Below are positions 25,612-43,805 of a DNA stretch of 64,000 nucleotides, piece by piece (the stretch's first letter is position 1; each line of letters starts with the position of its first letter). The translations under genes and the position numbers were made by a program. Source of the stretch: Nostoc sp. NMS7 (GTDB taxonomy: Bacteria > Cyanobacteriota > Cyanobacteriia > Cyanobacteriales > Nostocaceae); assembly GCF_017115085.1 (NCBI RefSeq), contig NZ_JABXKJ010000248.1:4157-68156 (forward strand), in the 5' to 3' direction. The notes below the pieces were generated by a model. The model had not been told where the DNA came from and did not search any database. It saw only the letters and a program-made list of their open reading frames with translations.

Positions 25612-25684
25612 GGGGAATTAGCTCAGTTGGTAGAGTGCTGCGATCGCACCGCAGAGGCCATCGGTTCAAATCCGTTATTCTCCA
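25612..25684 (+). tRNA. tRNA-Ala (anticodon CGC)
   Basis: Manual cloverleaf: acceptor GGGGAAT/ATTCTCC with a G3:U70 pair, anticodon arm CTGCG-ATCGCAC-CGCAG, and T-loop TTCAAAT. One U-U mismatch in the T stem. Length 73 nt. Confidence 0.85.
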
Positions 25685-25687: not shown

Positions 25688-25844
25688 TGTACATTAAATA
25701 ATTATTGTCACTTTTAAAGAATTAATGTCCATTTTTTCCAAGTTCAGGGGCATAAGTTACGTAGTTTCGCGGCTTTCAGCAATTAAATCGGTTTTAAAGA
25801 ATTATTGTCCAGAGTTGAAACCAGTTTTAAAGAATTATTGTCCA
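25688..25844 (+). repeat. tRNA/CRISPR-proximal transposon end with four TnsB-type ~20-bp repeats
   Basis: Copies of the motif TTTTAAAGAATTATTGTCCA lie at 25692-25711 (terminal), 25712-25731, 25792-25811 and 25825-25844, all in direct orientation. Confidence 0.75.
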
Positions 25845-26033
25845 AAATCAGCCTGTAAAACTCGGCTAAATATATGTTTTCTAATTTAATTGATTACAGT
25901 AAGCCCAAGGCTCTTAAATTACAAGAGTAGCTTTAAAGCTCTTTATTTGCAGTCTAATTACAAAAATATACTACCTCTTGTTTTGCTGTTTCCACCCAAG
26001 AAGAGGCTCCAATAATATATAGCTGCGTTTTAC

Positions 26034-26063
26034 GTGCGATCGCAGCACTCCTTTCAAACCACC
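26034..26063 (-). ncRNA. delocalised short crRNA (truncated repeat + 17-nt homing spacer against tRNA-Ala)
   Basis: 26051-26063 matches the repeat 3' part at 12/13 positions. 26034-26050 is the exact reverse complement of tRNA positions 25633-25649. Confidence 0.7.
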
Positions 26064-26098
26064 CTAATACAGAATTATATAGCCAAAGTGCCATAAAA

Positions 26099-26645
26099 CT
26101 TTCTGCCTACCACCTAAAGGAGGGCTTTGGAAACCCCACACTCCCCTTTGCAGGTAAGACGTAAGACAACTTTAATTCCTTTCAACCCACCACCTAGCGG
26201 AAGGGCTTTAGAAACGAAATTCTCCAAAGCGCCAACTCCAATCCTCATCAGCTTTCAACCCACCACCTAGCGGGAGGGCTTTAGAAACGTTGCTGAAAGT
26301 TATCTTTTAATGGAGACTCGCCTTTCAACCCACCACCTAGCGGGAGGGCTTTAGAAACACCAATTAATCAGGTAGTTGGGGAGACGTTGGCTACTTTCAA
26401 CCCACCACCTAGCGGGAGGGCTTTAGAAACCTATCGTCGGGGTTCATAACGCTGGTTCAGTCAACTTTCAACCCACCACCTAGCGGGAGGGCTTTAGAAA
26501 CCCTGGAGTCGTTGAGTCGTTTTTTGTTACCCGCATCTTTCAACCCACCACCTAGCGGGAGGGCTTTAGAAACACGAATTAACCAGCAGGGCTTGCCTGT
26601 ATCAGAGACTTTCAACCCACCACCTAGCGGGAGGGCTTTAGAAAC
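26099..26645 (-). CRISPR. type V-K CRISPR array, 8 repeats / 7 spacers, transcribed on the minus strand
   Basis: The 37-bp repeat (minus sense) is GTTTCTAAAGCCCTCCCGCTAGGTGGTGGGTTGAAAG. Copies start at 26609, 26537, 26465, 26394, 26322, 26252, 26179 (1 mismatch) and 26099 (degenerate terminal copy). Spacers are 33-44 bp. Confidence 0.95.
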
Positions 26646-26789
26646 CCCACCCACGAAAACTCGTGCCAACAATGGTTTTTGAAGGCAAATTTGACAAGCC
26701 TTCTTTAATTCCTATTTTCTACAGCCAATGAATAAAATTTTATTCATGACTGAAACAGTAATACCCAGTGCAGACAAGAGTTTTGGACG

Positions 26790-27268
26790 ATTGGCAGCAC
26801 CCCAGGGATTTTGACCCCGCTTTGGCTTGCCAAAAATAAAAATTAGGGGGTGGTAGTTCGGTAGCCACCGTGACGGTATACCCGTACCCTTACTTTGTTG
26901 TAAAGTAAGAGGTAATGATCCTCCTCGTAAAACCAAAATCTAAGATTTCAGTAGTACAGGCCGCTCTGGCACCCAACACCAAGCTAAAAGAGTTTGATGT
27001 CAAGAGCTAAGGTTCTGGGCTGTTTGGAACCCTAACACCTTATACTTCCCATGCGTCTCGGTGCGAGTACTTTCTCATCTAACAGCAGTATTAGCTTACC
27101 CAAGCAATTACCACTAACAAACACTTAGATGATCGCACAGGTAGAGTTGGCAGCTACCAGGGCCAGAAAGAATACGCTTTTTAAGCGTTAAACTAACCCA
27201 TTCTTACAGTATTTACATAAAGGGGTCATACTGTCGCATCATTAATAGATGGCACCGATTTAATACAC
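26790..27268 (-). ncRNA. tracrRNA region (boundaries approximate)
   Basis: It lies between the cas12k stop and the array. The minus-strand blocks GGGTTAGTTTAACGC..CTTTCTGGCCCTGGTAGCTGCC (27149-27199) and GGTGGCTACCGAACTACCACCCCC (26846-26869) resemble conserved ShCAST tracrRNA blocks as I recall them. Confidence 0.6.
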
Positions 27269-27296
27269 CAAAATATAGAATATTGAGGTAGAAATT

Positions 27297-29384
27297 TTAT
27301 CTACCTAAAGTATTAATTCTGCATTGGTAAGCGTAAAATGCTAAATCTCTTGCTTGTTCTTCCAGAGTGCCATAATGAGGTTGGATACCATATTCAATAC
27401 TAATTTTAAATTCAGCAGCTTTCGACTTTATGGATTCTTGAAGTCTGTTGTAACTCCAATTGTGTATCTGACGGTTATATTCTTTTACGTATAATTTTTG
27501 ACCATTTACATCACCTGAAATTTTAGTCTCAGCTTTGGCTTGAATTGCACTGGTGCGAATTTCCCTTATATCTTTTAATCTAGGTAGTACAATACAACCT
27601 GCCTGATAAGACTTAGCGATTTCTACTATTCTCTTTGCTAGTAATTTTTCAATGTATTCACCTAGTTTCGATTCGCCTATATTACATGGTGAATCTTTTT
27701 TTTGAGCTTTTTTTCTCTCTATACTTAAATGTACTTGTTGCCGTCGTCTGCGGCTTAACAGGTGAAAAGCATCGCCTAGTAACTGTTTGACTGTATTACA
27801 GGCAAGTACTTTTTTAGTATTTATATCAACTATGGCAACCGTCGCTAACTCAACAGGATGAAAACTGATACCAACAATTATATTAGATTGACCTCGATAA
27901 ACTAGCTTACTAGGACGAGCAAATGAATTCTTAAGCCGAGATAATGAAGATTTATCTTTATTCAGTTGTATTTGTTGATTGTTCTCTAACTTTTTATTTT
28001 CTTCTGCTTTACTTAATCGTTTTTGTGCCTTGTCAGTCTTTTTATTTTCTTCTGCTTTACTTACTCCTTTTTGCGCCTTATCAGTCTTTTCTTTTCTCAC
28101 TTCTTCAGTACCCTCTGCTGTCCATAAACGAGCATCATAGGTACAATGCAGAGCTAATTTATGAACTTTCCACGGGTCACCCTTGCCTTCACATTGTTGC
28201 CATAGCAACTGTGCAGAACGTAGTGTAATTAAACTTCCTGAAAGTTTTTCTTCACTTTTCTCGCTTTTTTTAAAAGCTTTGTGGTCTTCTAGAAAGCGTT
28301 CAAAAAAATGACGTTGGCGTTTATTACAACAAATTTTAAAGTGATATTCACTCCAACCATTGAAGTAAACAACAATATTGCCCTCATTGTTTTTATACCA
28401 AGTTAAATCACCGTATAGATAATCTATAGGGTATGGTAAATGTGATATTTTCCTCGATAAATTAGCTATCCAGTCTTCCCACTCTTTATTATCTTTAGGT
28501 ACTTGATTCATTAAGTTGTCAAATGCTTCACTATATCTTTCTCCTGTTATATCTCTACCACTAGGTAATCGATTATCTTGAATTTGATTCTCTAGACGTT
28601 TTATCTCTACTTTTTTCTCATTACGACGCTTTTTTAGTTTTTGAACATCCTCCTCTACTTCACTAATTTTATTATGATTTTTTATCAGGTAAGCTACTGC
28701 ACATCGGGTTAGAATATCCTGTGTTTGTTTATGGATTTTATATAAAACATTAGTTAATGTTTCTAATTTATTTTCATCTACATTGTTTGGAGAACTAGAA
28801 TCTTCCCTTTGTTCTGCATTGGTACTTTTATTATAAATATTTCTGTTAACTCTTTTTCTAGCTGACTTGGTTTGTTTTACATCTTCATCATTAATAGTAA
28901 GTTGTTTTAGAAATTTTTCTGGTTGAGTAAGTACTTCTTGTGCTTTAGAACGTATTGTCTGTAAATCACAGTTACTTTCACCTACAAGTTCAACATCACT
29001 TTTAAGTATATTTTGGAGAAAGTATTCTTTACCCTCTTTCTGCCTTTTTCGTTTCTGATATAAAGTAAGCCATGAAGAATAAACCTCTTTTACAAAAGAC
29101 TCTGCTGATGAGCGAAGACGGCCTGATTGTTCTTCAATTTCAGGATTTTTTGTGACAATTTTACGTAATTCTACGATTTCTTTCTTAGTTATTTCTCCCT
29201 TTTCTTTATTAGCTTCAAATTCTGGTTGTTCGTTTACACTCTTTAACAATTGAACAATCAGAGGAGTATTTTTTTGAGTCATTTCTTCCCATACTTGGCG
29301 AAGTATATTTTCACTAGCATCTAAATGGCATCGTATGGTTCTATAGACTGAAATCGTGGATTTCTTCTTACGATCGCTACTCAT
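27297..29384 (-). CDS. cas12k: Cas12k (type V-K effector, nuclease-dead)
   Basis: 695 aa, collinear with ShCas12k as I recall it (YFNGWSEYHFKICCNKRQRHFFERFLED, LWTAEGTEEVRKEK, NSFARPSKLVYRGQSNIIVGISF, QLLGDAFHLLSRRRRQQ, IHNWSYNRLQESIKSKAAE). The RuvC-I position reads GISFH, with no Asp. Confidence 0.9.
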   Translation of the reverse strand: MSSDRKKKSTISVYRTIRCHLDASENILRQVWEEMTQKNTPLIVQLLKSVNEQPEFEANKEKGEITKKEIVELRKIVTKNPEIEEQSGRLRSSAESFVKEVYSSWLTLYQKRKRQKEGKEYFLQNILKSDVELVGESNCDLQTIRSKAQEVLTQPEKFLKQLTINDEDVKQTKSARKRVNRNIYNKSTNAEQREDSSSPNNVDENKLETLTNVLYKIHKQTQDILTRCAVAYLIKNHNKISEVEEDVQKLKKRRNEKKVEIKRLENQIQDNRLPSGRDITGERYSEAFDNLMNQVPKDNKEWEDWIANLSRKISHLPYPIDYLYGDLTWYKNNEGNIVVYFNGWSEYHFKICCNKRQRHFFERFLEDHKAFKKSEKSEEKLSGSLITLRSAQLLWQQCEGKGDPWKVHKLALHCTYDARLWTAEGTEEVRKEKTDKAQKGVSKAEENKKTDKAQKRLSKAEENKKLENNQQIQLNKDKSSLSRLKNSFARPSKLVYRGQSNIIVGISFHPVELATVAIVDINTKKVLACNTVKQLLGDAFHLLSRRRRQQVHLSIERKKAQKKDSPCNIGESKLGEYIEKLLAKRIVEIAKSYQAGCIVLPRLKDIREIRTSAIQAKAETKISGDVNGQKLYVKEYNRQIHNWSYNRLQESIKSKAAEFKISIEYGIQPHYGTLEEQARDLAFYAYQCRINTLGR

Positions 29385-29545
29385 GGTGACAACATCTCCA
29401 CCGAATCAATAATTTTTTTTTGTTTGTGTAATTTAGAACTAACTACTTATTCGTCTTCGCCAGATAACGATCGCCACTTGACCTGATCGCCATCCAAAAA
29501 CCTCGGTATTATCGCACTTGTTCAGTAATGGTTTTAATCTACCAT

Positions 29546-29577
29546 AAAACATTGTCAAACATTGTTAAACATTATTG
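29546..29577. promoter_or_regulatory. three tandem AAACATT(G/A)T decamers in the cas12k / RHH divergent promoter region (candidate operator)
   Basis: The sequence is aaaacattgtc aaacattgtt aaacattatt. On the minus strand the middle copy overlaps a TTGACA hexamer facing cas12k. Confidence 0.4.
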
Positions 29578-29602
29578 AGCCTTGTTCCAAGGTTACGGGA
29601 GT

Positions 29603-29803
29603 ATGATGAACTGGCAACAAATCTTTGTAGTGTTGATGAGTCAAAGCGATCGCGTACAAACTTCCATATATTTCCCCAAAGATATCCACGAGGCATTGGT
29701 GAGATGGGCTGAGGAAGAAGACCGTCCCATCAGTAATCTTGTTGTGCGGCTTGTGAGTAAGGCAGTTGAGGAGCGGGAAAAGAAGCAAAATCCGCCGCAA
29801 TAA
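29603..29803 (+). CDS. ribbon-helix-helix (CopG/Arc-type) DNA-binding protein, divergent from cas12k
   Basis: The core VQTSIYFPKDIHEALVRWAEEEDRPISNLVVRLVSKAVEE has the beta-strand/helix/helix pattern of RHH repressors. The start is ambiguous (29582 TTG, 29603 ATG or 29636 ATG). Confidence 0.6.
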   Translation: MMNWQQIFVVLMSQSDRVQTSIYFPKDIHEALVRWAEEEDRPISNLVVRLVSKAVEEREKKQNPPQ

Positions 29804-30000
29804 TATCTAGCTTTTGCAGATAGGACAATTTGTAAATTCCTGGTATACGATATATCCTCAGCCACTACATGAGCAAAGTCCTTGTGCGTGGTATGTTATT
29901 GGTTCTTTGCACGATGTAAAAACTTCAAGGCAAAGTGTCAGACGGGCTTAAGAACGTCTGGCAAAGTTGAGCGGGGGAGGTTTTTTGAAGGCTACACGAA

Positions 30001-31925
30001 ATGGCAATTAAAAAAAGTGAACTTTATAGTTCGTTATGGAAAAGCTGTGATGAACTGCGAGGTGGCATGGATGCCTCGCAGTATAAAGATTATGTACTAG
30101 TTTTATTGTTTGTTAAATATGTATCTGACAAATATGCAGGTGTAGCAGATGCACTGATTGAAGTGCCTGAAGGCGGAGGCTTCCAGGACATTGTTGCCCT
30201 CAAAGGACAGAAAGATATAGGGGATGGCATTAACAAAATTATCGCCAATTTAGCCGAAGCCAATGATTTAAAGGGTGTTATTGATGTAGCTGATTTCAAT
30301 GATGCCGATAAGCTGGGCAAGGGTAAGGAAATGCAAGATAGGCTTTCCAACTTGGTGGCGATTTTTGAAACCCCTGCTTTGAATTTTAGTAAGAACCGCG
30401 CCGATGGTGATGATATTTTGGGCGATGCCTATGAGTACCTGATGCGTAACTTTGCGACGCAATCAGGCAAAAGCAAGGGTCAATTTTATACTCCGGCGGA
30501 AGTCTCCCGTGTAATCTCTCAAGTTATTGGCGTTAATTCAGCCCAAAGTCAGAGTCAAACGATTTACGACCCGACTTGTGGTAGTGGTTCTCTGTTGTTA
30601 AAGTCGGCGGATGAAGCAGAACGGGGCTTAACCATCTACGGACAGGAGATGGACAACGCTACCCGCGCCTTGGCTCGGATGAACATGATCCTGCACGGAC
30701 ACCCTACTGCTGAAATTTGGCAAGACAATACTTTATCAACTCCTTACTTCAAAGATGCGGATGGTAGCCTGAAAACTTTTGATTTTGCTGTGGCTAATCC
30801 TCCCTTTTCCTCGAAGGCTTGGAGCAATGGACTTAATCTAGCCAAAGACGAATTTAAACGGTTTGATAACTATGGTATCCCTCCGGCTAAAAATGGGGAC
30901 TATGCTTTTTTGCTGCACATGGTTCGCTCCCTAAAAAGTCAAGGCAAAGGGGCGATTATTCTGCCGCATGGGGTGCTGTTTCGCGGGAATGCGGAGGCGG
31001 AAATTCGGAAAAATCTGATTAGCAAGGGAATTATCAAGGGGATTATTGGGCTACCGCCGAATCTGTTTTATGGGACGGGGATTCCAGCCTGCATTATTGT
31101 GTTAGACAAGGAAGATGCCGAGAATCGCCAAGGCATTTTTATGATTGATGCCAGCAAGGGGTTTGTTAAAGACGGCAATAAAAACCGCCTACGGGAGCAG
31201 GACATTCATAAAATTGTTGATGTCTTCAACAAACAGCTTGAAGTGGCGAAGTATTCGCGGATGGTGTCAGTTCAGGAAATTGCGGGGCATGAGTACAATC
31301 TGAATATCCCGCGCTATATCGACAGTCAGGAAGAGGAAGATATTCAGGATATTGAGGCGCATCTGTTGGGGGGGATACCCGCTATTTTAAAGCTGAACAG
31401 GCGGCGATCGCTACCTTGGAAACGAAAAAGGATGAAATTGTTCGCCAGCAGGAGGAACTGCAAGAAGAACATGGCGGTGAGGAGGGTTTGCTAGAGGAAG
31501 CCACTAATGACAGTGGGAAAATTACCAAAGCGAATGTCAATGATCGCATTAAGGCAATCAAGAATGATGCCACGTTTGCGGATGAGTTAAAGGTATTAAA
31601 GGCTTATTTAAAGCTGATTGAGCAAGAGGCGGAAATTAGTAAAGAAATTAAAGTATTGACTCAATTTTTGGATAATTATATTTTAACAAGATACGGGGAT
31701 TTAACCGAGGACGAGATAAAAACGCTGGTAGTAGATGATAAGTGGATGCCGACGTTAAGACAGGCGATCGCTTCAGAGATGGATCGGATTTCGCAACGGT
31801 TGACAAAGCGAATCCAGGAGTTGGCGGAACGATATGATACGCCTTTACCGGAGTTGACGAGTCGTGTGGAGGAGTTGACGGCTAAGGTTGAAGCGCATTT
31901 GCAGAGGATGGGGTTGGTGTGGTAA
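30001..31925 (+). pseudogene. hsdM: type I R-M methyltransferase subunit HsdM, reading frame broken at a G7 tract
   Basis: HsdM_N region (LWKSCDELRGGMDASQYKDYVLVLLFVKYVSDK) and N6-MTase motifs (DPTCGSGSLL, VANPPFS). After GGIP (31369-31380) the frame decays into an R/K-rich tail. The coiled-coil C-terminus continues in another frame (ORF 31416-31925). Confidence 0.8.
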
Positions 31926-32392
31926 CGGATAAACAGGAAGGAAACTATAAAATTTATCTTGATGTTTGTTGTCTAAATCGTCCTTTTGACGACTGCACAC
32001 AAGAGCGAGTTCGTTTAGAAGGGGAAGCTATTCTTAGCATTATGGAGCGCATTCGTATTAGAGAATGGCGACTTGTTACCAGCGAAGCTATCAGGGTGGA
32101 GTTAGAGAAAATGCGTAATCTCGACAAATTAGAGAATATATTAAAATTCTTGGAATTTGCTGTGATTACTATCAATATAGATGAAGGTGTAGATTTTCGC
32201 TCACAGCAATTGGAGAATTTAGGTTTTGGTCTTTATGATTCTTTTCATATTGCTTGTGCAGAAGTTGCTCAGGCAGATGTCTTACTTTCTACTGATGATC
32301 GGTTACTGAAGAACTCACTACGGCATCAAGGTTTGTTAAAAGTGTCTGTGGATAATCCTGTAACTTGGTTGATGAATACTTATTTAAATTAG
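31919..32392 (+). CDS. PIN-domain protein (toxin-like), paralog 1
   Basis: Contains YKIYLDVCCLNRPFDD ... DSFHIACAE ... LLSTDDRLL. It is 40-50% identical by eye to ORF 34169-34654. Its start overlaps the hsdM stop (GTGGTAA). Confidence 0.7.
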   Translation: MVTDKQEGNYKIYLDVCCLNRPFDDCTQERVRLEGEAILSIMERIRIREWRLVTSEAIRVELEKMRNLDKLENILKFLEFAVITINIDEGVDFRSQQLENLGFGLYDSFHIACAEVAQADVLLSTDDRLLKNSLRHQGLLKVSVDNPVTWLMNTYLN

Positions 32393-32404
32393 GAGGATAA
32401 ATAA

Positions 32405-32605
32405 ATGATGACACCAATTGAGTTGAGAAAAAAAGGTTATCAAATTTTAGTAGAACATTTGGGTCAAGTAGATGCTATTCGCTTTTTACAACAAGCTGGA
32501 TGGGGAAGCGGTGACTATACACAAGAAAGAAAGGAAACGTTAGATAAAGTCACAAGAGAAGAGTTTTGGGAAGACCTGAAGCGGATTAGAAAAACATCGT
32601 GTTGA
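32405..32605 (+). CDS. small partner protein of PIN paralog 1 (antitoxin-like)
   Basis: MTPIELRKKGYQILVEHLG..DAIRFLQQ..GSGDYTQER is a paralog of ORF 34641-34856. Its last codons are supplied by the 21-bp repeat array. Confidence 0.5.
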   Translation: MMTPIELRKKGYQILVEHLGQVDAIRFLQQAGWGSGDYTQERKETLDKVTREEFWEDLKRIRKTSC

Positions 32606-32705
32606 AGTACCCAAACATCGTGTTGAAGTACCCAAACATCGTGTTGCAGTACCCAAATATCGTGTTGAAGTACCCAAATATCGTGTTGAAGTACCCAAAT
32701 ATCAT
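32588..32705. repeat. tandem array of ~5.5 units of a 21-bp repeat related to the 6474-6690 array
   Basis: The unit is tacccaaa(c/t)atcgtgttgaag, head to tail. It shares the core ccaaa-n-atcgtgttgaag with the array at 6474. Confidence 0.85.
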
Positions 32706-32740
32706 ATAGAAAGGTTAATTAAGCTCTTTAAACGATTTAC

Positions 32741-32840
32741 GCAGAGGATTAAGGAGTTGGTGGAACGGTATGATATGCCTTTATAAGAGTTAACGGCTAA
32801 GGTGGAGGGGCATTTGCAGAGAATGGGGTTGGTGTGGTGA
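32741..32840 (+). other. degenerate duplicate of the hsdM 3' end (scar) abutting hsdS
   Basis: About 85% identical to 31795-31925 with a ~22-nt deletion. It ends with the same ...GGGGTTGGTGTGGTGA junction, which overlaps the hsdS GTG start. Confidence 0.7.
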
Positions 32841-34159
32841 AAAAAAGTCTGAATCACGGATTAGAGGGATTACGGGATGACACGGCAGGGATAGAGGGGT
32901 ATAAAAAAACTGAGGTGGGGGTGATTCCTGATGATTGGGAAGTAAAAAGGTTAGGTGATATTGCTGATATAAAAACAGGCCCATTCGGCTCCTCTCTACA
33001 TGAAAAAGATTATGTTGAGGATGGCACACCTATTATCACAGTCGAACATTTAGGTGAAAAAGGGGTAGTGCATAAAAATTTGCCAATGGTTTCCCATGCA
33101 GATAAAAATAGATTAAGTGCTTACATTCTTAAAACAGGTGATATTGTTTTTAGCCGTGTTGGATCTGTAGATAGAAATTCATTAATTAGCGATGTGGAAA
33201 ATGGCTGGCTATTTTCTAGCCGCTTACTAAGAATTAGAATTAATCCTCAAAATATTAGCCCTGCATACCTGAGCTATCATTTTCATCAAGAACCAACAAA
33301 ACAGAGGATTAGAAGTGTTGCAGTTGGTCAAACAATGGCATCACTTAATACTGAAATACTAAAAAATATTGAAGTTATTCTTCCGCCAACTCGTCTTGAA
33401 CAAAAAGCGATCGCTCAATCCCTCAGCGATGTCGATGCCTTGATTACAGAGTGCGATCGCATCATCTCCAAAAAGCGCAACACCAAGCAAGGCACGATGC
33501 AGCAACTCCTTACGGGCAAAAAACGCCTCCCCGGTTTTAGCGGTAAGTGGGAGGTGAAGAAATTAGAAGAAGTAACAGCAATTACAAGACTCGCAGGTGC
33601 AGAATATTCTTCTGTATGGAAGGAAGATGATAATGGTGAAATAATTGCATTGAGAGGATTTAATATTGTAAAAAATCGAATCATTGAGAAAGACTTAGCC
33701 AGAATTTCAAATGAACTTTCTTTGAAGCTAAATAGATCAAGACTTTATAGAGGCGATGTTGTTTATCCTTGTGTAGGAACAATTGGAAATGCAGCTGTTA
33801 TAGAGGAAGATGATAAGTACCACATTCAGCAAAATATTGCCAAAATAACTCCTATCAAAAGTGTCCTTTCATCATATTATTTAGCTCATTATTTGATAAG
33901 TCCTCTTGGATTGGATGAAGTCTTAAGGTTTAACGCAACTTCCAGTCAGCCAAATGTTTTAGTAGGAAGTTTAAGAAAGTATAGGATTCCCCTCACTTCT
34001 ATACCCGAACAAAAAGCGATCGCCCAAATCCTCAGCGACATGGATACAGAAATCGCAGGCTTAGAACAAAAGCGCGATAAATACAAAGCTATCAAACAGG
34101 GCATGATGCAAGAATTATTAACCGGAAAAACTCGCCTAAAATATGATTTAAATAAATAA
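32834..34159 (+). CDS. hsdS: type I R-M specificity subunit HsdS (two TRDs)
   Basis: Two target-recognition halves, each followed by a conserved helix (LEQKAIAQSLSDVDALI; PEQKAIAQILSDMDTEIAGLEQKRDKYKAIKQGMMQELLTGKTRL). Confidence 0.9.
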   Translation: MVKKSLNHGLEGLRDDTAGIEGYKKTEVGVIPDDWEVKRLGDIADIKTGPFGSSLHEKDYVEDGTPIITVEHLGEKGVVHKNLPMVSHADKNRLSAYILKTGDIVFSRVGSVDRNSLISDVENGWLFSSRLLRIRINPQNISPAYLSYHFHQEPTKQRIRSVAVGQTMASLNTEILKNIEVILPPTRLEQKAIAQSLSDVDALITECDRIISKKRNTKQGTMQQLLTGKKRLPGFSGKWEVKKLEEVTAITRLAGAEYSSVWKEDDNGEIIALRGFNIVKNRIIEKDLARISNELSLKLNRSRLYRGDVVYPCVGTIGNAAVIEEDDKYHIQQNIAKITPIKSVLSSYYLAHYLISPLGLDEVLRFNATSSQPNVLVGSLRKYRIPLTSIPEQKAIAQILSDMDTEIAGLEQKRDKYKAIKQGMMQELLTGKTRLKYDLNK

Positions 34160-34168
34160 TTAAATAAT

Positions 34169-34654
34169 ATGGGTAGAAAATATAAAATATATCTTGATGT
34201 TTGTTGTTTAAATCGTTCATTTGACGACCAAACACAGCCGCGAATTCGTTTAGAAACAGAAGCGATTTTAGAAATTATCAGCCGTTGTCGAGATGGAGAA
34301 TGGGAATTGGTCAGTAGTACAGCCCTAGAATCGGAAATTGCACAAACCCCAGATGTAGCCAGAAGAGAACAGGTACTTGAAGCATTAGCGATCGCTCAAC
34401 ATCAGATTTTAGTCACCGAAGAAATATCTAGACGAGCTATAGAATTAACAAACTTTAATATTAAAAATTTTGATGCGCTTCATATCGCTTGTGCTGAAGG
34501 GAACGCCGACATTTTCTTGACAACTGATAACCGTCTATTGTCAAGAGCATTAAACTATAAGAATAACTTAAACATAATAGTTGCTAACCCAATGATCTGG
34601 TTAGCAGAAGTTACCACTAATCTCGTAGAAGGAGGAGAAAATGACCCCGATTGA
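34169..34654 (+). CDS. PIN-domain protein (toxin-like), paralog 2
   Basis: Contains YKIYLDVCCLNRSFDD ... DALHIACAE ... FLTTDNRLL. Confidence 0.7.
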   Translation: MGRKYKIYLDVCCLNRSFDDQTQPRIRLETEAILEIISRCRDGEWELVSSTALESEIAQTPDVARREQVLEALAIAQHQILVTEEISRRAIELTNFNIKNFDALHIACAEGNADIFLTTDNRLLSRALNYKNNLNIIVANPMIWLAEVTTNLVEGGENDPD

Positions 34655-34856
34655 ATTATATAGAAAAGGATTTCAAGCCTTAGTAGATGCTTTGGGATAT
34701 CCTGATGCTATCCGGTTTATTCGCCAATTTGACAACGGAAGTGGAGACTACACCCAAGAACGTCATCAATGGCTCGATCAGCTAACGATGGATGAAATCC
34801 TCACAGACATTAAGCAACGCCAAAAAATATCTGACTCCAAGAATCAGGAACAATAA
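34641..34856 (+). CDS. small partner protein of PIN paralog 2 (antitoxin-like)
   Basis: Contains MTPIELYRKGFQALVDALGYPDAIRFIRQFDNGSGDYTQER. It overlaps the PIN gene by 14 nt. Confidence 0.5.
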   Translation: MTPIELYRKGFQALVDALGYPDAIRFIRQFDNGSGDYTQERHQWLDQLTMDEILTDIKQRQKISDSKNQEQ

Positions 34857-34945
34857 TGAGCCAAGTTGGACAACGGGAACGCCTAAGCCAAAACCGCAAA
34901 CAGGGAATCATGCAAGAATTATTAACCGGAAAGACAAGACTAATT
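34856..34945 (+). other. chimeric scar: hsdR 5' remnant fused to hsdS 3' remnant
   Basis: 34856-34898 is about 80% identical to the hsdR start (35802-35844). 34899-34945 is about 85% identical to the hsdS 3' end (34093-34140). The translation reads MSQVGQRERLSQNR|KQGIMQELLTGKTRL. Confidence 0.6.
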
Positions 34946-35075
34946 AGCAGTTCTTAATCAACGCCAAGGTTTTCAACCGCCAGTCTCTAAAATAGAAGTT
35001 AGAAAGCTCCCCCATTAGCAGCAAACGCCGCACACACTAACGACCAATTCCAAATGACAAGGGCTAAAGCATATT

Positions 35076-35312
35076 ATGGAACACATTGCTACCAGCGAAT
35101 TACCCGAAACGCTTCAACAAATATTTGCAGAAATACAACGCACCAAAACACCCTTAACCGTCACCCATGAAGGAGAACCCTTAGTCATTATCTATCCTGC
35201 CACTCCTCAACCCCACCGCCCAGCATTTGCAGTAATGAAGGGTAGCGGCGAAATATTGGGAGAGGTGATTGCTCCAGTAATTCCTGCTAACACATGGGAA
35301 GCCCTCCAGTGA
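35076..35312 (+). CDS. Phd/YefM-type antitoxin
   Basis: 78 aa with TPLTVTHEGEPLVIIYPA, typical of the Phd/YefM fold. It overlaps the downstream PIN gene. Confidence 0.65.
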   Translation: MEHIATSELPETLQQIFAEIQRTKTPLTVTHEGEPLVIIYPATPQPHRPAFAVMKGSGEILGEVIAPVIPANTWEALQ

Positions 35313-35698
35313 AGCTCTTAATTGATACCCACATCTGGCTTTGGTATTTGCTTGGTAACGAACGCCTATCTCCTCAGCTTCAAACCATTATTGCAGCAGG
35401 AACAACCGAACTTTGGCTCAGTCCAATTAGTATCTGGGAAACGCTACTCTTAGCAGAAAAAGGACGACTATCTTTACAGCCGAATCCAGTTGCATGGGTC
35501 GATTTAGCCTTAAATACCCTAGAAATTCGTGAGGCTCCACTTAATCGCCACATCGCTATTTTAAGCCGTCAGATTAATTTACCACACCAAGACCCAGGCG
35601 ATCGCTTTATTGCAGCTACCGCAGTTTACCACCAGTTGATATTAGCTACAGTCGATACCAATCTCACGGGTGCTTCCTGGTTACAAACATTAAGCTAG
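35294..35698 (+). CDS. vapC: VapC-family PIN toxin
   Basis: Contains LLIDTHIWLW ... SPISIWE ... DPGDRFIAATA ... LATVDTNL, giving the acidic PIN quartet pattern. Confidence 0.8.
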   Translation: MGSPPVKLLIDTHIWLWYLLGNERLSPQLQTIIAAGTTELWLSPISIWETLLLAEKGRLSLQPNPVAWVDLALNTLEIREAPLNRHIAILSRQINLPHQDPGDRFIAATAVYHQLILATVDTNLTGASWLQTLS

Positions 35699-35801
35699 AC
35701 AGAAAATTCACGGATAACACAAATAAAGATGACATAGTTTGATAAACAGTGTCATATTTAAAGCTGAGTAAATCCGTGATTATCACAGTGAGAGAGTTGC
35801 T

Positions 35802-38800
35802 ATGAGCAAGGTCGGACAACGCGAACTCCCAACCCAAAACCGCATTGTGCAATTATTCCAGCAACAATTAAACTATCGGTATCTGGGTAATTGGCACTAC
35901 CGACCTAACAACAGCAACATTGAAACGGAAATCCTCAGCACCTTCCTTGGCGACAAACAAGGCTACAGCAACAGCCTCATCACCAAAGCCTTGTATGAAC
36001 TCAACAAAGTCGCAGGCGACAAAAGCCTTTATGACATCAACAAAGAAGTTTATAGCCTGCTGCGTTATGGGGTGAAAGTCAAAGAAGAAGTTGGCGAGAA
36101 TACCCAAACCGTTTGGCTGATCAACTGGGAAGAACCCCTAGAAAATGACTTTGCGATTGCTGAAGAAGTCACAGTTAAAGGCAAAAACCCTAAACGCCCA
36201 GATATCGTACTTTATGTTAATGGTATTGCGATCGGTGTACTCGAACTCAAACGCAGCATCATTTCCGTCTCTGAAGGCATCCGCCAAAACCTCGATAACC
36301 AAAAATCCATATTTATTAAATCCTTCTTCACCACCATGCAGTTAGTCATGGCAGGTAACGACACTGAAGGACTCCGCTACGCCACAATTGAAACCCCAGA
36401 AAAATACTTCCTCACTTGGAAAGAAGATACTAACAGCGACATCACCGATCCTTTAGATAAACACCTGCTGCAACTCTGCGCCAAAGAACGCTTTCTAGAG
36501 TTAATTCACAACTTTATCGTCTTTGACCGGGGTATAAAAAAAGTCTGCCGCCATAACCAGTATTTTGGGGTTAATGCTGCCCAATCTTACCTCCGTCGCC
36601 GAGAGGGGGGTATTATCTGGCATACTCAAGGCAGTGGTAAAAGCTTGACAATGGTTTGGCTAACTAAATGGATTCGGGAAAACATTACTGATGCTCGTGT
36701 TCTGATAATTACTGATCGAGATGAACTAGACAAGCAAATTGAGAATGTCTTTAAGGGAGTCAACGAAGCGATTTACCGCACTACAAGCGGGAAAGACCTA
36801 ATTAACAAACTCAACAGCACCACCACCTGGTTACTCTGCTCCCTAATCCACAAATTTGGCAAGAAAGACAAGGCAGACGACGCAGACTACAACAGCTACA
36901 TCGAAGAACTCAAGCGCAGCCTGCCCAGCGACTTTAGCGCCAAAGGCGATATCTATGTATTTGTGGATGAATGTCATCGCACCCAATCAGGCACACTGCA
37001 CGACGCGATGAAAGAAATCCTACCCAATGCTGTATTCATAGGCTTTACAGGCACACCCCTACTCAAAAAAGACAAGCAAAACAGCATCAACGTTTTTGGT
37101 GATTACATTCACACCTACACATTCAAAAAAGCCGTAGCCGACCAGGTTATCCTTGATTTGCGCTACGAAGCTCGTAATGTTGACCAAAACATTACCTCAC
37201 AAACCAAAATTGACCAGTGGTTTGAAGCCAAAACTAGAGGTTTAACAGAACACGCCAAAACCCTACTCAAGAAACGCTGGGGAAATCTGCAAAAAGTTCT
37301 CAGTTCAAAATCCCGGTTGGAAAGAATTGTCAGCGATATTCTGCTAGATTTTGAAACTAAAGACCGCTTGCAAAGTGGTCATGGTAACGCTATGCTCATC
37401 TCTGGTAGCATTTACCAAGCTTGTAAATATTACGAGTTATTCCAAAGCGCTGGTTTTATCAAATGTGCCATTGTCACATCCTACAAACCTTCCCCGAATG
37501 ATATCAAAGGCGAAAGTACGGGAGAAGAGGAACTGACGGAAAAATTACGGCAGTACGAAATTTATCAAAAAATGCTCAACGGCAAAGCGGCAGAAGTATT
37601 TGAAGACGAAGTTAAAAATAAATTTGTCGAAGAACCAGCCCAAATGAAACTGCTGATTGTAGTCGATAAGTTGCTGACGGGATTCGATGCACCTTCTGCC
37701 ACTTATCTCTACATCGACAAAACCATGCGCGACCACGGACTATTTCAAGCCATTTGTCGCGTCAACCGCTTGGATGGTGAAGATAAAGAATATGGCTACA
37801 TCATCGACTACAAAGACTTATTTAAAAGCCTGGAAAAATCAATTAACGATTACACCAGCGAAGCATTTGAAGACTACGAACCAGACGACATCGATGGATT
37901 ATTGAGTGACAGAATCGCCAAAGGCAGAGAACGCCTAGAAAATTCCAGAGAAAGCATTAAAGCCTTGTGCGAATCTGTAGAGCAACCCCAAGACACCCAT
38001 GCCTATATTCGCTATTTCTGCGGTGCCGATACTGAAAACCCAGACTTTATAAAAGAAAATCAACAACAGCGCATTGCCCTTTATAAATACACATCAGCTT
38101 TAGTCCGAGCCTATGCTAACCTATCCAATGATATGGCAGAAGCCGGATACACCACAACAGAAACTGAAATTATTAAACAAGAAGTTAAGCATTACGAACA
38201 GGTACGCGCAGAAGTAAAGCTAGCCAGTGGTGATTATATTGACTTGAAAGCCTACGAACCCGCCATGCGTCACTTGATTGATACCTACATTGGGGCAGAA
38301 GAAAGCGAAATAATTTCAGCCTTCGACGACATGACACTAATTCAGTTGATTGTCGAACGCGGTGCAAATGCAGTTGAGGCATTACCCAAAGGCATCAAGC
38401 AAAACCAAGAAGCCGTCGCGGAAACCATCGAAAACAACTTACGCAAAGTTATTATAGATCAACAGCCGACCAACCCGAAATATTTCGACAAAATGTCCAC
38501 ACTGTTGAATGAGTTAATCCAAGCACGAAAAGCAGCCAGCCAAAACTATAAAGCCTACTTACAGAAAATTGTTGAGTTAAGTAAACAAGTTGCTCAACCG
38601 AGTAGCTCATCACAGTATCCTCAATCATTGAACTCTCCTGCTAAAAGAGCTTTATACGATAACCTTAATCAAGACGAAGCGTTAGCTCTAGCGATAAATG
38701 ACGCGATTCGCAAAATCAAAAAAGATGGGTGGCGTGGAAACATAATGAAAGAGCGCGAAGTAAAAAATGCCATTAAGAAATATTTAGATTCCCCGGAAGA

Positions 38801-38846
38801 TTGCGATCGCATTTTTGAAATAGTCAAGAGCCAAAGCGAGTATTAG
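35802..38846 (+). CDS. hsdR: type I restriction endonuclease subunit HsdR
   Basis: 1014 aa. N-terminal nuclease region (PDIVLYVNGIAIGVLELK), helicase motifs (TQGSGKSLTM; VDECHRTQSG; TGTPL) and a C-terminal helical domain. Confidence 0.95.
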   Translation: MSKVGQRELPTQNRIVQLFQQQLNYRYLGNWHYRPNNSNIETEILSTFLGDKQGYSNSLITKALYELNKVAGDKSLYDINKEVYSLLRYGVKVKEEVGENTQTVWLINWEEPLENDFAIAEEVTVKGKNPKRPDIVLYVNGIAIGVLELKRSIISVSEGIRQNLDNQKSIFIKSFFTTMQLVMAGNDTEGLRYATIETPEKYFLTWKEDTNSDITDPLDKHLLQLCAKERFLELIHNFIVFDRGIKKVCRHNQYFGVNAAQSYLRRREGGIIWHTQGSGKSLTMVWLTKWIRENITDARVLIITDRDELDKQIENVFKGVNEAIYRTTSGKDLINKLNSTTTWLLCSLIHKFGKKDKADDADYNSYIEELKRSLPSDFSAKGDIYVFVDECHRTQSGTLHDAMKEILPNAVFIGFTGTPLLKKDKQNSINVFGDYIHTYTFKKAVADQVILDLRYEARNVDQNITSQTKIDQWFEAKTRGLTEHAKTLLKKRWGNLQKVLSSKSRLERIVSDILLDFETKDRLQSGHGNAMLISGSIYQACKYYELFQSAGFIKCAIVTSYKPSPNDIKGESTGEEELTEKLRQYEIYQKMLNGKAAEVFEDEVKNKFVEEPAQMKLLIVVDKLLTGFDAPSATYLYIDKTMRDHGLFQAICRVNRLDGEDKEYGYIIDYKDLFKSLEKSINDYTSEAFEDYEPDDIDGLLSDRIAKGRERLENSRESIKALCESVEQPQDTHAYIRYFCGADTENPDFIKENQQQRIALYKYTSALVRAYANLSNDMAEAGYTTTETEIIKQEVKHYEQVRAEVKLASGDYIDLKAYEPAMRHLIDTYIGAEESEIISAFDDMTLIQLIVERGANAVEALPKGIKQNQEAVAETIENNLRKVIIDQQPTNPKYFDKMSTLLNELIQARKAASQNYKAYLQKIVELSKQVAQPSSSSQYPQSLNSPAKRALYDNLNQDEALALAINDAIRKIKKDGWRGNIMKEREVKNAIKKYLDSPEDCDRIFEIVKSQSEY

Positions 38847-38847
38847 G

Positions 38848-39552
38848 ATGCACCAAATAACTGTCGGTGAACTCGTCATAGACGTTGCCAGAAAAGACAT
38901 TAAAAACTTGCACTTGGCAGTGTACCCCCCCGATGGTCGAGTACGTATCGCCACACCCTTAAACATTGATGACGAAGCTGTGCGTTTATTCGCTATCTCC
39001 AAACTAGCCTGGATTGAAAAGCATAAAGCTAACTTTGAAACGCAAGAACGCCAGTCAAAAAGAGAATTTGTATCTGGTGAAAGTCATTACTTTCAAGGAA
39101 AACGCTATTTATTAAATGTCATTTATGGACTGGGTAATCCCAAAGTAGAAGTTAGAAATAATACTTATATCGACCTTTATGTTAGAGAAGGAAGTAATGA
39201 AGCGCAACGCCAACAAGTCATGATGTCTTGGTATCGACAGCAGTTAAAACAGGAAATTCCCCCATTAATCGAAAAATGGCAAAGGAACATGGGAGTAAAG
39301 GTTGAGGACTGGGGGATAAAGCTGATGAAAACCAAATGGGGTACTTGCAACATCCAAGCAAAACGTATCTGGCTCAACCTCGAACTAGCGAAAAAAGATA
39401 AGCGTTGCCTAGAGTATGTTGTAGTTCATGAAATGGTGCATCTGTTAGAACGTCATCACGGCGATCGCTTTGTGGCTTTCATGAATAAGTTTCTGCCGAA
39501 TTGGAAATTTTGTAAGGATGAGTTAAACCGCTCCCCACTTGGAAGCTATTAA
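38848..39552 (+). CDS. DUF45/M48-type (YgjP-like) zinc metallopeptidase
   Basis: HEMVHLLERHH zinc motif near the C-terminus. It starts 2 nt after the hsdR stop. Confidence 0.8.
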   Translation: MHQITVGELVIDVARKDIKNLHLAVYPPDGRVRIATPLNIDDEAVRLFAISKLAWIEKHKANFETQERQSKREFVSGESHYFQGKRYLLNVIYGLGNPKVEVRNNTYIDLYVREGSNEAQRQQVMMSWYRQQLKQEIPPLIEKWQRNMGVKVEDWGIKLMKTKWGTCNIQAKRIWLNLELAKKDKRCLEYVVVHEMVHLLERHHGDRFVAFMNKFLPNWKFCKDELNRSPLGSY

Positions 39553-39814
39553 GTTCGACTATTAGCCCGATTTAGCTTATAAAGAGCAGGTGATCGCCAT
39601 TTTCTGTGATAGTTCGGTTAATAACAATCTTAACAAACGCAAGCAAGACCAAATTGAGCGTTATAATTTCAGCTACAACATAAATTACCTTGTCTTGGCT
39701 CTACGACATAATGAAGATAGCTGATGAAGTTGGGAATTCTAGCAATTCTTAATCCCACCAAGACTGATTTACGATTTACACAGTCAACAATACGATGTAA
39801 AGTATTGTACAAAA

Positions 39815-40726
39815 TCAAAATAGCTTACTCCAGTTACGACGAAGAATTACACCACGATAGTCTTCGATATAACTCAATGCTGCTCGATTGGTATCAATTA
39901 CTTCTTCAAAATCTCTTGCTTTATCACGAATGTTAACCGAGCGGAGCTTTTGAAGGATTTGCTCGGCAGAATCTAATAGGTTTCTGTGATATTCAACTGA
40001 TTCATCAAATGAGCTTCGCCTGGATGCAAGAGTCTGTGTTCTCAAAGTCTGCAAGTAATGACGAAATGACTCTGATTCCCTAAATCCAGTGGAGCTAGGC
40101 TGAGATCCGCTAAAGAGAATTTTTGCCTCCCAAATAAGGTCACTATTACTAGGTAAGTTTGGTAGCAACAAATAAGATTCTGAAGCAAACCAAGTATTTT
40201 GAAAGGCTTGATTAAGTCCTTGTTGCCAATTATTAATTTTTGCCTCTATCACGATTAATCGTTGGATCGCAAAAATTTCTTCTAATGGTTTAGCTTCCCA
40301 TCTACCTTCCTTGCAATGAATAAGATTTGCCTCAAGTAAACGGCGTAATGATTTGTAGAAATAATTAGGGAAAACCATTTCTAATGTTGATGTTTCAACA
40401 CTAAGTTCAGAAAATATATAATGCAAAATACGTAAGTCAAGCTTAGTAATTTTTAACCTTGTAGGCAACCATTTTTTAGCAATATCAGGTTGAAAGTAAA
40501 CAATAACAATATCAGGAAATCCTGAATCAATTTGAGGCTCTAAAAAAATGAATTTTAACTCCCCATTTTCCGATGGTGATAATAATTTTGATTGAATATA
40601 TTTGTATACCATTTCATATTCAACACCTTTAGTTGGCTTTCTCAATGATAAACTAAGCGTTCCTAAAGATGGAAACTCTTGAAAATTTTCTGACTGAATA
40701 ATAATAGTATGTGAAGAAAGTTGCAT
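39815..40726 (-). CDS. hypothetical protein with PD-(D/E)xK-like motifs and an inserted wHTH-like segment
   Basis: 303 aa. GFPDIVIVYF and IVIEAKINNWQQGLNQAFQ resemble nuclease motifs II/III. A very AT-rich 300-bp region lies upstream. Confidence 0.5.
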   Translation of the reverse strand: MQLSSHTIIIQSENFQEFPSLGTLSLSLRKPTKGVEYEMVYKYIQSKLLSPSENGELKFIFLEPQIDSGFPDIVIVYFQPDIAKKWLPTRLKITKLDLRILHYIFSELSVETSTLEMVFPNYFYKSLRRLLEANLIHCKEGRWEAKPLEEIFAIQRLIVIEAKINNWQQGLNQAFQNTWFASESYLLLPNLPSNSDLIWEAKILFSGSQPSSTGFRESESFRHYLQTLRTQTLASRRSSFDESVEYHRNLLDSAEQILQKLRSVNIRDKARDFEEVIDTNRAALSYIEDYRGVILRRNWSKLF

Positions 40727-41030
40727 TCCTACTTTTTTCTTATGTTAATATAGTATAACATATTCTTGTTTTAGCTAAATTTTAATGCAAATATTTTTAT
40801 TTATAAAAAACTTTATCTTAATTAAAATAAAATTTTTTGAAGGGATTATTTTTTGACTTTAAATGATTTATATTTAGTAGTTTTTTTTAAATAAAAATTC
40901 ACTATTTATTTGTTATTATATTGGATAAAATAGGTTTTACTATTTGTGCCTTTTTTTTCAATATATAAGTGTGAGAAATCCCGGTTCAGTTTTGATTCGA
41001 CTCAATGAGCGCACTCAGCCGGAGCATTAC

Positions 41031-41543
41031 TTAGTAAGCTTTATGTCGCTTTTTCATACTTCTAAAAGGAGCATGGCATTTGTTACATTCTCCCTGTTCC
41101 CATAACGCTGGGATAGTAAAACGCTCTTTGCAAAAGGGACATTCTGAAAGTAGACGTAACTTGTGGCGATCGCACCCCACGGTTGATTGAAACTGCCACT
41201 CTAATCGATGATATGGTTGCTCTACATAACACACAGCACACAACCGTATTGGCTCCATTTTCATTTTTTCACCCTTGGGCGGGAGCATTTGAGCAATTCG
41301 ATCTACATCTAAACCAATTAATTTAGCAATTGCCTCTAATTCCTTTTGACTGGGAACCGGATTCAACCGAAATTTCTCCCACCTTGCTAATACTGGGCCA
41401 ATTCCTGCGGCTTTACTTAAACTACCAGGAGACGAGACGCAAACTGCTTCGTGTCGCCTAAATCGTCCAAAATAGTGACTAATACTCTCCCCTTCGTTGG
41501 GTTCTACATACCAAGGCGGATGTTGAACAGCTTCTGGCTCCAT
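41031..41543 (-). CDS. tniQ: TniQ (short, type V-K form)
   Basis: 170 aa. N-terminal EGESISHYFGRFRR, HTH-like middle, and C-terminal zinc-ribbon cysteines (CAVC...CDRH...CPFC...CNKC). Confidence 0.85.
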   Translation of the reverse strand: MEPEAVQHPPWYVEPNEGESISHYFGRFRRHEAVCVSSPGSLSKAAGIGPVLARWEKFRLNPVPSQKELEAIAKLIGLDVDRIAQMLPPKGEKMKMEPIRLCAVCYVEQPYHRLEWQFQSTVGCDRHKLRLLSECPFCKERFTIPALWEQGECNKCHAPFRSMKKRHKAY

Positions 41544-41669
41544 AACTTACATTTAAATACCTAAACGGCTTGCTATAGACTAGGAAAATAAAACTGTTTA
41601 ACAACTGCCATAGTAGTCCAGTCAGGTATCTTGGCAGGCAGCAAGCTGGTTGAAATCCTGGATGCTAAG

Positions 41670-41719
41670 AGTATTATTCGGTTAACCGAATCTAATTGTT
41701 CGGTTAACCGAATAATACT
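41670..41719. promoter_or_regulatory. double palindrome (two TTCGGTTAACCGAA sites inside a larger 21-bp inverted repeat)
   Basis: agtattattcggttaaccgaa-tctaattg-ttcggttaaccgaataatact. It lies 127-176 bp upstream of the tniQ start. Confidence 0.4.
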
Positions 41720-42028
41720 ATCAAAGAGTGCGATCAGAAATTTTAGGAATCTTTTCTCGCCTATCTCGCCAAAGCCTCGTGGATATCTTGGGCGGAAAGA
41801 TTATATCGAAGTTTGTCCGCGATCGCTTTGGCTTATCAACTTTAGAAAGATTTATCGCCAGATCCATCAGATCGCTGCAACCTTCTTTAAAAACTCAAAA
41901 AGGTTTAGCAATGTTTTTTAATGTGTGACAATGTTTGTATGCTAAAGTAAGAATATTGAAAAACACTAATTTAATGCTTGCAGTAACTTGAAGAATGCTT
42001 ATAGCTTTTGAGATATGGGAAAGCCTCT

Positions 42029-42340
42029 ATGCGTGATATTCTCCCCCAAATACCGCCAGTAGCAATGCCAGAGGTAATTCCCAGCGAATTACCCCAGCAG
42101 AAATATCATCTCGGTGAATGGGTGCGCTGGTTTCAAGTACTCAATGGCGATTTTGGTCGTGTCATCGGAGTAATCTACACCCAACAAGCTAGTTGCATCG
42201 CCACTGGCTTGCACTACTTGATTTTGTTAGATGAGCGCAGTCCCTCTCGTGACACCTGTACCTGCGACTTCGCTTTCGAGGATGATATCGAATCCTTGGA
42301 TAATTCATCCTTGCTACGGCTTAGGGGCAATCATGTCTGA
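42029..42340 (+). CDS. hypothetical protein (opposite strand to the tns genes)
   Basis: 103-aa ORF from the ATG at 42029. Its stop overlaps the next ORF's start (ATGTCTGA). Confidence 0.4.
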   Translation: MRDILPQIPPVAMPEVIPSELPQQKYHLGEWVRWFQVLNGDFGRVIGVIYTQQASCIATGLHYLILLDERSPSRDTCTCDFAFEDDIESLDNSSLLRLRGNHV

Positions 42341-42617
42341 AACTCAAAATTTTCAGCAGTTGCTAAAACTGCACAACCAAATATTTATGTCCCCTCAAGA
42401 CTTTAGTTACCGTTGGGGATTGGGTTACGAAGAATTAGCAAAAATCTGTGCCATCTCTAAATCTACGGCTTATCACTGGTTGAGTGGACAAGCCAGCCGC
42501 CGAGAAGCTGGATTGCCTTACCAGAGAATTATGGCTGTGGCTGATTTTCTTTTCACCAACGCCGAAGTAATTAACCCACTGTTGGAACAGTGGCATAATT
42601 CTCAACCACCAAATTAA
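42333..42617 (+). CDS. small helix-turn-helix protein
   Basis: YEELAKICAISKSTAYHWLSG is a classic HTH. It is coupled to the upstream ORF. Confidence 0.6.
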   Translation: MSETQNFQQLLKLHNQIFMSPQDFSYRWGLGYEELAKICAISKSTAYHWLSGQASRREAGLPYQRIMAVADFLFTNAEVINPLLEQWHNSQPPN

Positions 42618-43572: not shown

Positions 43573-43577
43573 TTTAC

Positions 43578-43775: not shown

Positions 43776-43805
43776 TTCAACAATTTTCGATCTATTAGAC
43801 TTTTG

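Follow-up and report, generated by a model that had tools for sequence, protein, structure and literature searches.

A damaged V-K_V2 CRISPR-associated transposon beside tRNA-Ala(CGC) in Nostoc sp. NMS7 and the probable recency of its inactivation

CRISPR-associated transposons (CASTs) of type V-K that belong to the V-K_V2 subgroup, such as that of Scytonema sp. NIES-4073, are the closest described relatives of the element considered here, which lies beside the gene for tRNA-Ala(CGC) in a 64,000-nt stretch of Nostoc sp. NMS7 (hereafter the window). The subgroup is marked by the 3′-end of its CRISPR repeat, an anti-repeat in its trans-activating CRISPR RNA (tracrRNA), an Arc_2-type regulator and the distance between the protospacer-adjacent motif (PAM) and the transposon end, and the NIES-4073 tracrRNA_V2 has been detected by northern blot (Ziemann et al. 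2025, Microlife, PMC12416283). The V-K_V1 system of Scytonema hofmannii (ShCAST; PDB 7PLA, 7M99, 7SVW) has the same four proteins, guide architecture and short homing CRISPR RNA (crRNA) as the window element, which differs from it in having an Arc_2 regulator, extra tracrRNA stem-loops and a TnsC without Walker residues, at about 40-45% identity. Part-inactivated V-K systems that stay at their tRNA site have likewise been recorded, including a V2 element of Anabaena PCC 7120 disrupted by an insertion sequence; 12 degenerated Cas12k proteins were set aside in the corresponding survey, and regulators were noted beside degenerated cas12k genes (Ziemann et al. 2023, PMC9938897). The damage in the window lies in tnsB and tnsC, whereas that of the surveyed degenerate loci lies in cas12k or the tracrRNA.

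The window corresponds to C201:4157-68156 (C denoting a contig) of an 8.29-Mb draft assembly of 271 contigs that is scored 100% complete, and the nearest kin of the genome are Nostoc species, many of which are lichen cyanobionts. The element, about 20 kb long (25688-45688), is a further, damaged member of the described V2 subgroup; degenerated CAST loci are already on record. The reading favored here, at a probability of about 0.8, is that it is an ordinary V-K_V2 CAST that was inactivated recently and whose guide module is intact by chance. The locus carries little weight as a discovery; what it offers is a view of how a V-K_V2 CAST begins to decay, and of how an intact-looking guide module beside broken transposase genes can arise by chance.

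A V-K_V2 element with an intact guide module

On the minus strand, from high to low coordinates, the element runs from one end (45688) through tnsB, tnsC, about 1.3 kb of cargo remnant and tniQ, and beyond tniQ through further cargo, a ribbon-helix-helix (RHH) regulator, cas12k, a 651-nt tracrRNA region, the CRISPR array and the homing guide to the other end (25688) and tRNA-Ala. Placement of the tRNA at the tnsB-distal end is the usual layout of Cas12k elements (bioRxiv 2021.02.06.429022). Membership in type V-K is indicated by the Cas12k effector, a 695-aa open reading frame that matches ShCas12k over residues 16-691 (phmmer E=1e-138); Cas12k matched no Pfam family, and its identity rests on the PDB match. 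TnsB (rve/Mu-transpos_C), TnsC (AAA_22/TniB) and TniQ were matched by Pfam, with PDB-protein matches of TnsB to ShTnsB (E=9e-109) and of TnsC to ShTnsC (E=1e-22); tnsB and tnsC are truncated, and tnsA is absent from the Pfam and PDB matches. A tracrRNA and an array downstream of cas12k, a truncated-repeat homing guide to the adjacent tRNA and a GTN PAM are all present, and one further mark of type V-K, a 5-bp target-site duplication, is missing.

Assignment to the V2 subgroup follows from the repeat end, the anti-repeat, the Arc_2-type regulator and a PAM-to-end distance of 55 nt, for which 54 nt has been published (PMC12416283). The regulator (RHH_5; PF07878, E=7.5e-11) lies upstream of and divergent from cas12k, as in NIES-4073, and the repeat 3′-end GGTGGTGGGTTGAAAG and anti-repeat 2 AACUACCACCCCC are both present. 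A tracrRNA region that spans about 650 nt from cas12k to the array and contains AACUACCACCCCC, repeats ending in GGTGGTGGGTTGAAAG, tRNA homing, and type I restriction-modification (R-M) cargo beside the regulator are likewise common to the window and the subgroup. The window Cas12k is 72% identical to that of NIES-4073 and 65-90% identical to those of 22 V2 loci found in a scan of species-representative genomes, identity above 60% being taken as a mark of the subgroup; at most of these 22 loci the element adjoins the same HAD-hydrolase gene and tRNA-Ala. The window departs from the subgroup in its tnsB nonsense codon, its broken hsdM, its lack of a target-site duplication, and a TnsC of 248 rather than 306 aa, the N- and C-terminally extended form of about 306 aa having been shortened by a deletion.

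The guide module had been judged intact in a preliminary description of this DNA, and closer comparison bears this out. The cas12k gene (27297-29384, minus strand) is one open frame. At columns that are otherwise invariant it differs privately in five places, where 13 relatives have between 1 and 19 such changes. A private in-frame tandem duplication of 48 nt (27990-28085) further adds 16 residues (TDKAQK.LSKAEENKK) to a Lys/Glu-rich linker of variable length, V2 Cas12k proteins ranging from 648 to 714 aa. The tracrRNA_V2 region (26646-27296, minus strand), which includes anti-repeat 2 AACTACCACCCCC, is conserved throughout in an alignment with 14 V2 loci except for a hairpin-less gap of 24 nt relative to most of them. 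The gap was considered as a lesion and rejected, since the same allele occurs in Nostoc sp. CMAA1605 and NIES-4103, which marks it as natural variation. The CRISPR array (26104-26645, minus strand) holds seven 37-nt repeats (26179-26645; six perfect and one with a single mismatch, with 3′-ends of GGTGGTGGGTTGAAAG), a degenerate eighth repeat (26104-26139) and seven spacers of 33-36 nt.

Beyond the array lies a delocalised homing crRNA (26034-26064, minus strand) made of a truncated repeat (26051-26064) and a 17-nt spacer (26034-26050), a design described previously (Hsieh and Peters, bioRxiv 2021.02.06.429022). The spacer matches positions 25633-25649 of tRNA-Ala(CGC) at 17 of 17 positions, preceded by a GTA PAM (25630-25632); this tRNA gene (25612-25684, plus strand; ARAGORN and Rfam) is the attachment site. 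The Arc_2-type RHH regulator (29582-29803, plus strand) is 100% identical in protein sequence to those of Nostoc sp. KVJ20 and Nostoc 'Peltigera membranacea cyanobiont' 232 (Pmem232). Both transposon ends are well preserved. The tRNA-proximal end (25688-25844, plus strand), three bases from tRNA-Ala, begins with TGTACATTAAAT and contains three TTTTAAAGAATTAWTGTCCA repeats resembling TnsB sites, and the tnsB-proximal end (45500-45688, minus strand) has a terminal 43-bp inverted repeat. The terminal inverted repeats of the two ends agree at 42/43 positions, the difference (TGTCCA versus TGTACA) consisting of two forms that are both found in relatives.

Lesions in the transposition genes

The tnsB gene (43578-45479, minus strand) is interrupted, as noted earlier, by an in-frame TAA at codon 558 (43806-43808), where Pmem232 has GAA and the metagenome-assembled genome (MAG) P8219 has GGA. 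Past the stop the frame runs for 75 more codons to a conserved RRPRVGVQNWNQFVKDNW tail, and in 13 relatives the V2-type TnsB frame stays open for 636-654 aa; the truncated protein is therefore without its last 75 residues, the conserved C-terminal hook included. The tnsC gene (42826-43572, minus strand) has 248 codons where relatives have 306-310; of these 248, codons 1-238 are colinear with and 94-96% identical to 306-aa orthologues (TnsC being 304-318 aa long in 13 relatives) and the last 10 are out of context and end in a stop. DNA comparison traces this to a 1.5-kb deletion, equivalent to positions 7965-9472 of the KVJ20 contig, with a junction at about 42855-42857 and a 3-nt overlap; lost with it were codons 239-306 of tnsC and, on the opposite strand, the greater part of a 437-aa cargo gene. 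The C-terminal damage to tnsC first seen from the window is thus real. A common origin with the broken tnsC of MAG DedSLP03 was considered and rejected because the junction sequences differ. That gene (L082:3511-4980) is broken at codon 237, against codon 238 in the window, which may reflect either an independent break or a fragile site.

In ShCAST, removal of the 15-residue C-terminal hook of TnsB, or of its whole C-terminal domain, abolishes transposition (PMC9371665), and the TnsC C-terminus contacts TnsB (PMC12416283). Taken with the loss here of 75 residues from TnsB, hook included, and of the C-terminal 68 residues from TnsC, these results make it a well-founded expectation that both truncated proteins have lost their function and that the element can no longer move on its own; in this sense the earlier term "immobilised" appears apt.

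Other supposed damage proved to be ordinary for the clade. The preliminary description counted the Walker motifs among the lesions of tnsC, a view that cannot be upheld. Where ShTnsC has GESRTGKT and IIDEAD, V2-clade TnsC proteins have SATGSGLL(K)-type and LIVGNADYL/IVGNAD-type sequences, and the Walker A Lys/Thr and Walker B Asp/Glu are missing from every aligned TnsC of the clade, including the full-length 306-aa protein of KVJ20. The same loss extends to wider TnsC relatives at 38-59% identity (clade and wider relatives together: window 42826-43572; L077:7247-8167; L023-L030), and many of these Walker-less proteins are full-length and strongly conserved (tnsC ratio of non-synonymous to synonymous rates, dN/dS, 0.09-0.18). 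Non-canonical Walker motifs are thus a trait of the lineage and not a lesion of the window copy.

Operon structure had also been described as damaged. The gap between tnsC and tniQ is there (41544-42857, no strand assigned; a cargo remnant that includes the first 48 codons of the 437-aa opposite-strand gene), but cargo occupies the same place in KVJ20, Pmem232 and MAG P1574, tnsC and tniQ being adjacent in P8219 and NIES-4073; the gap is not damage in itself, and the damage specific to the window is the 1.5-kb deletion. The tniQ gene (41031-41543, minus strand; Pfam TniQ) is intact, its 170-aa product sharing 91-94% identity with equally long V2 orthologues. Within the cargo, hsdM (30001-31925) has lost 476 nt near 31376-31380, which leaves it as two frames, one of 497 and one of 169 codons, compared with 801-803 aa for HsdM in KVJ20 and Scytonema NIES-4073; the hsdS and hsdR frames of the window are open. 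The break falls at a G-run, but as the junction of a 476-nt deletion it represents neither a tract subject to phase variation nor a sequencing error of a single base.

The missing target-site duplication, as first reported, is confirmed by the 5-bp flanks of the element, CATCT and ACTGC. Perfect duplications are present in KVJ20 (CCATG), Pmem232 (CCATC) and P1574 (CCATT), and P8219 is also without one. Immediately outside the tnsB-proximal end lies a fragment of a DUF1998/MrfA-type gene (45689-46288, plus strand; 200 codons, without a start or proper end), and no other piece of it was found in the window genome. The tnsB-side flank of Pmem232 and P1574 (L074:1-4911; L080:7107-9000) maps instead to C5:14581-19370 of the window genome at 86-88% identity, with no V2 end adjoining that segment. 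The position of the relatives' flank on another contig, together with the abutting gene fragment, suggests a rearrangement that broke the DNA precisely where the transposon ends, and a post-insertion rearrangement of the tnsB-side junction is likely. V-K CASTs lack TnsA, which makes a self-made intramolecular event a plausible cause; an adjacent deletion or inversion produced by the element's own replicative transposition could plausibly have made this junction.

Were the stop and the deletions errors of sequencing or assembly in a draft of 271 contigs, the element would be intact and active. Such an error would be easiest to accept for the tnsB lesion, which is a single base followed by a conserved tail, and for the hsdM break, which falls at a G-run with a junction overlap at 31376-31380. 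It sits poorly with two independent deletions (1.5 kb and 476 nt) whose short microhomology junctions lie in colinear sequence of 91-95% identity, an arrangement atypical of assembly error. Independent signs of rearrangement, namely the lack of a target-site duplication and the cut-short gene in the flank, speak against it too. An artefact on this scale is improbable.

Age of the lesions, selection and exchange

Neither the tnsB nor the tnsC lesion is shared by any of the relatives examined; both are private to the window genome. Relative to its two nearest orthologues, tnsB has six synonymous and eight non-synonymous private changes, and the window TnsB remains 96-98% identical in protein sequence to intact orthologues. 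With lesions that are private and apparently very recent, an intact cas12k is what chance alone would be expected to leave. On the favored reading, a V-K_V2 element would have homed beside tRNA-Ala(CGC) by means of its 17-nt guide and would very recently have lost its own mobility through a single-base change to a stop codon in tnsB, the loss of the tnsC 3′-end by a microhomology deletion and a rearrangement of the tnsB-side junction, the cargo gene hsdM being likewise deleted in part. The guide module would still be intact since too little time has passed for damage to accumulate, and the present state would represent the first ordinary stage of mobile-element decay rather than retention for a new function.

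Retention was the alternative that the preliminary description proposed: the Cas12k-crRNA complex would have been kept by selection after mobility was lost, as an RNA-guided binder or repressor of DNA, for example at tRNA-Ala. All guide parts and Arc_2 are indeed intact beside damaged tnsB, tnsC and hsdM, and the homing protospacer and PAM persist in tRNA-Ala(CGC), a single-copy gene in this genome. To our knowledge, however, the tRNA protospacer survives in every homed V-K CAST, so that occupancy of tRNA-Ala is neither special to the window copy nor a new state. Domestication would also call for guides to host promoters or genes beyond the attachment site. Outside the array, none of the seven spacers is matched over 22 nt or more anywhere in the host genome, and the only other exact 17-nt match of the homing spacer (on C9) has TTG and not a GTN PAM and does not lie in a tRNA gene. 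Moreover, the published account of Arc_2 is of a repressor-type regulator acting on cas12k (PMC9938897).

Comparison of 23 related elements adds to this case. About ten are intact in all genes seen (for example KVJ20, P8219, FACHB-892 and NIES-4073). In Pmem232, cas12k is frameshifted with tnsB and tnsC intact; G166 has a 66-aa cas12k stub and an open tnsB frame; and Nostoc sp. WHI has a truncated cas12k and an intact tnsC. The reverse state, an intact cas12k with tns genes broken or missing, is found in the window element and in MAG P2164 (G409), where no V2-type tns genes were found. Both modules are hit in NIES-4103 (two stops in cas12k, one in tnsC). Three further elements are reduced to fragments: in DedSLP03, each of cas12k, tnsB and tnsC is broken or present in part, and at the same tRNA-Ala/HAD locus of PCC 9305 and Aliinostoc HNIBRCY26 only cas12k fragments were found, with no V2-type tns genes. 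Decay strikes either module first, and among relatives the loss of cas12k with tns retained is about as frequent as the opposite. Conservation of the guide module under purifying selection in transposase-less lineages, which domestication predicts, is thus not the pattern observed, and asymmetric intactness in one genome does not speak for domestication as long as the lesions are not found in relatives too.

Selection estimates point the same way. By the Nei-Gojobori method, pairwise dN/dS is 0.27-0.41 for cas12k, 0.17-0.28 for tnsB, 0.09-0.18 for tnsC and 0.08-0.17 for tniQ, with cas12k above tnsB and tnsC in every comparison; cas12k is the least constrained core gene across the V2 clade as well (PMC12416283). 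The preliminary description had held that a cas12k as relaxed as the tns genes would tell against retention, and its dN/dS is in fact higher, in values that mostly predate the inactivation. With private and recent lesions, the opposite asymmetry in sister elements, the highest dN/dS of the core genes and spacers that do not target the host, retention of the guide module for another role is very unlikely.

Several considerations weigh against reading the intact guide module as a product of chance. Since pairwise dN/dS mostly records the period before inactivation, the test has low power, and changes on the private branch are too few for constraint after inactivation to be measured. If tnsB was broken at the start of the private branch (dS about 0.014), a neutrally evolving cas12k could, on a rough estimate, have gained as many as 29 or so substitutions and roughly one stop codon, so that an intact cas12k would be only mildly unlikely, at somewhere between one chance in three and even odds. 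The guide module, both ends and tniQ are also flawless, against three deletions or stops in the other approximately 14 kb.

More informative than the state of the guide module, together with the clade-wide loss of Walker residues, is the divergence of the V2 core compared with that of its surroundings. Relative to the nearest elements, dS is 0.065-0.10 for tnsB (Pmem232, P8219), 0.11-0.16 for tnsC, 0.12-0.13 for cas12k (KVJ20, P8219) and 0.07-0.10 for Arc_2, compared with 0.24-0.44 for two flanking host genes. A core less diverged than its host flanks implies exchange among Nostoc lineages later than the divergence of the hosts, which argues against a long-immobilised relic kept by vertical descent. 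The modules are also mosaic, P1574 being near to the window in cas12k (dS 0.18) and far from it in tnsB (dS 0.98). In the 5′ part of the tracrRNA region (window 27230-27290), only CMAA1605 and NIES-4103 have the hairpin-less allele as well, and the remainder of the region is closest to KVJ20 and P8219; this pattern of allele sharing and the discordant dS of cas12k and tnsB suggest recombination between V2 elements.

Other CASTs, neighboring ends and cargo

The genome contains five cas12k loci and two V-K-type tnsB genes. One locus is a complete-looking V1 CAST (C135:75939-95900) encoding TnsB of 619 aa, TnsC of 284 aa, TniQ of 188 aa and Cas12k of 693 aa. Three others are cas12k remnants: one with a TAG stop (C5:1450-3126), one at a contig end (C252:51-1619), and a 118-aa fragment beside tRNA-Leu(TAG) (C108:113849-114181), none with a V-K-type tnsB beside it. 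Such a collection of CAST remnants in a single genome, a graveyard of sorts, fits routine decay.

Mobilisation in trans had been suggested as the alternative: the element, with its ends and guides intact, would be moved by transposition proteins that a different CAST of the cell supplies. The near-identical terminal inverted repeats, the intact internal TnsB-site repeats and the resident V1 CAST on C135 would be in keeping with this. The C135 set, however, is the only other tnsB/tnsC/tniQ set that a search of the whole genome returned, and it is divergent, with TnsB 37-39%, TnsC 30-32% and TniQ 58% identical to the window proteins and end repeats of the TTCGCAAATTTAATGTCG type in place of the V2 repeats TTTTAAAGAATTATTGTCCA. 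No second V2-type tnsB, and hence no cognate transposase, was found elsewhere in the assembly. The published TnsB structure attributes cognate-end specificity to base-specific contacts and describes different CASTs as acting independently (PMC9371665). Mobilisation by the V1 proteins is accordingly held to be a slight prospect. An equally small chance attaches to use of the orphan V2 guide module by the cell, whether as an RNA-guided DNA binder, at tRNA-Ala or on plasmid or phage sequences that its seven spacers target, or as an extra targeting module feeding the TniQ, TnsC and TnsB of the V1 CAST.

V2 elements often stand in tandem with the ends of other CASTs (L077:5100-5133; L065:13270-16851; L081:2090-2111). 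The KVJ20 flank resembles a V1 end (TGTACATTCGCAAATT), and immediately after the V2 end of NIES-4103 comes a V1 tnsB-tnsC-tniQ set. These arrangements suggest that tRNA-Ala collects stacked CASTs.

The main cargo region of the window element (30001-39552, plus strand) comprises the type I R-M system, with inserts of PIN toxin-antitoxin genes, and a peptidase-like gene. In many V2 CASTs from several genera (L053, L057, L058, L059, L064, L066-L069), a type I R-M operon stands beside Arc_2, with protein identities across these elements of 90-97% for hsdM and 80-96% for hsdR, and it behaves like near-core cargo of the V2 subgroup.

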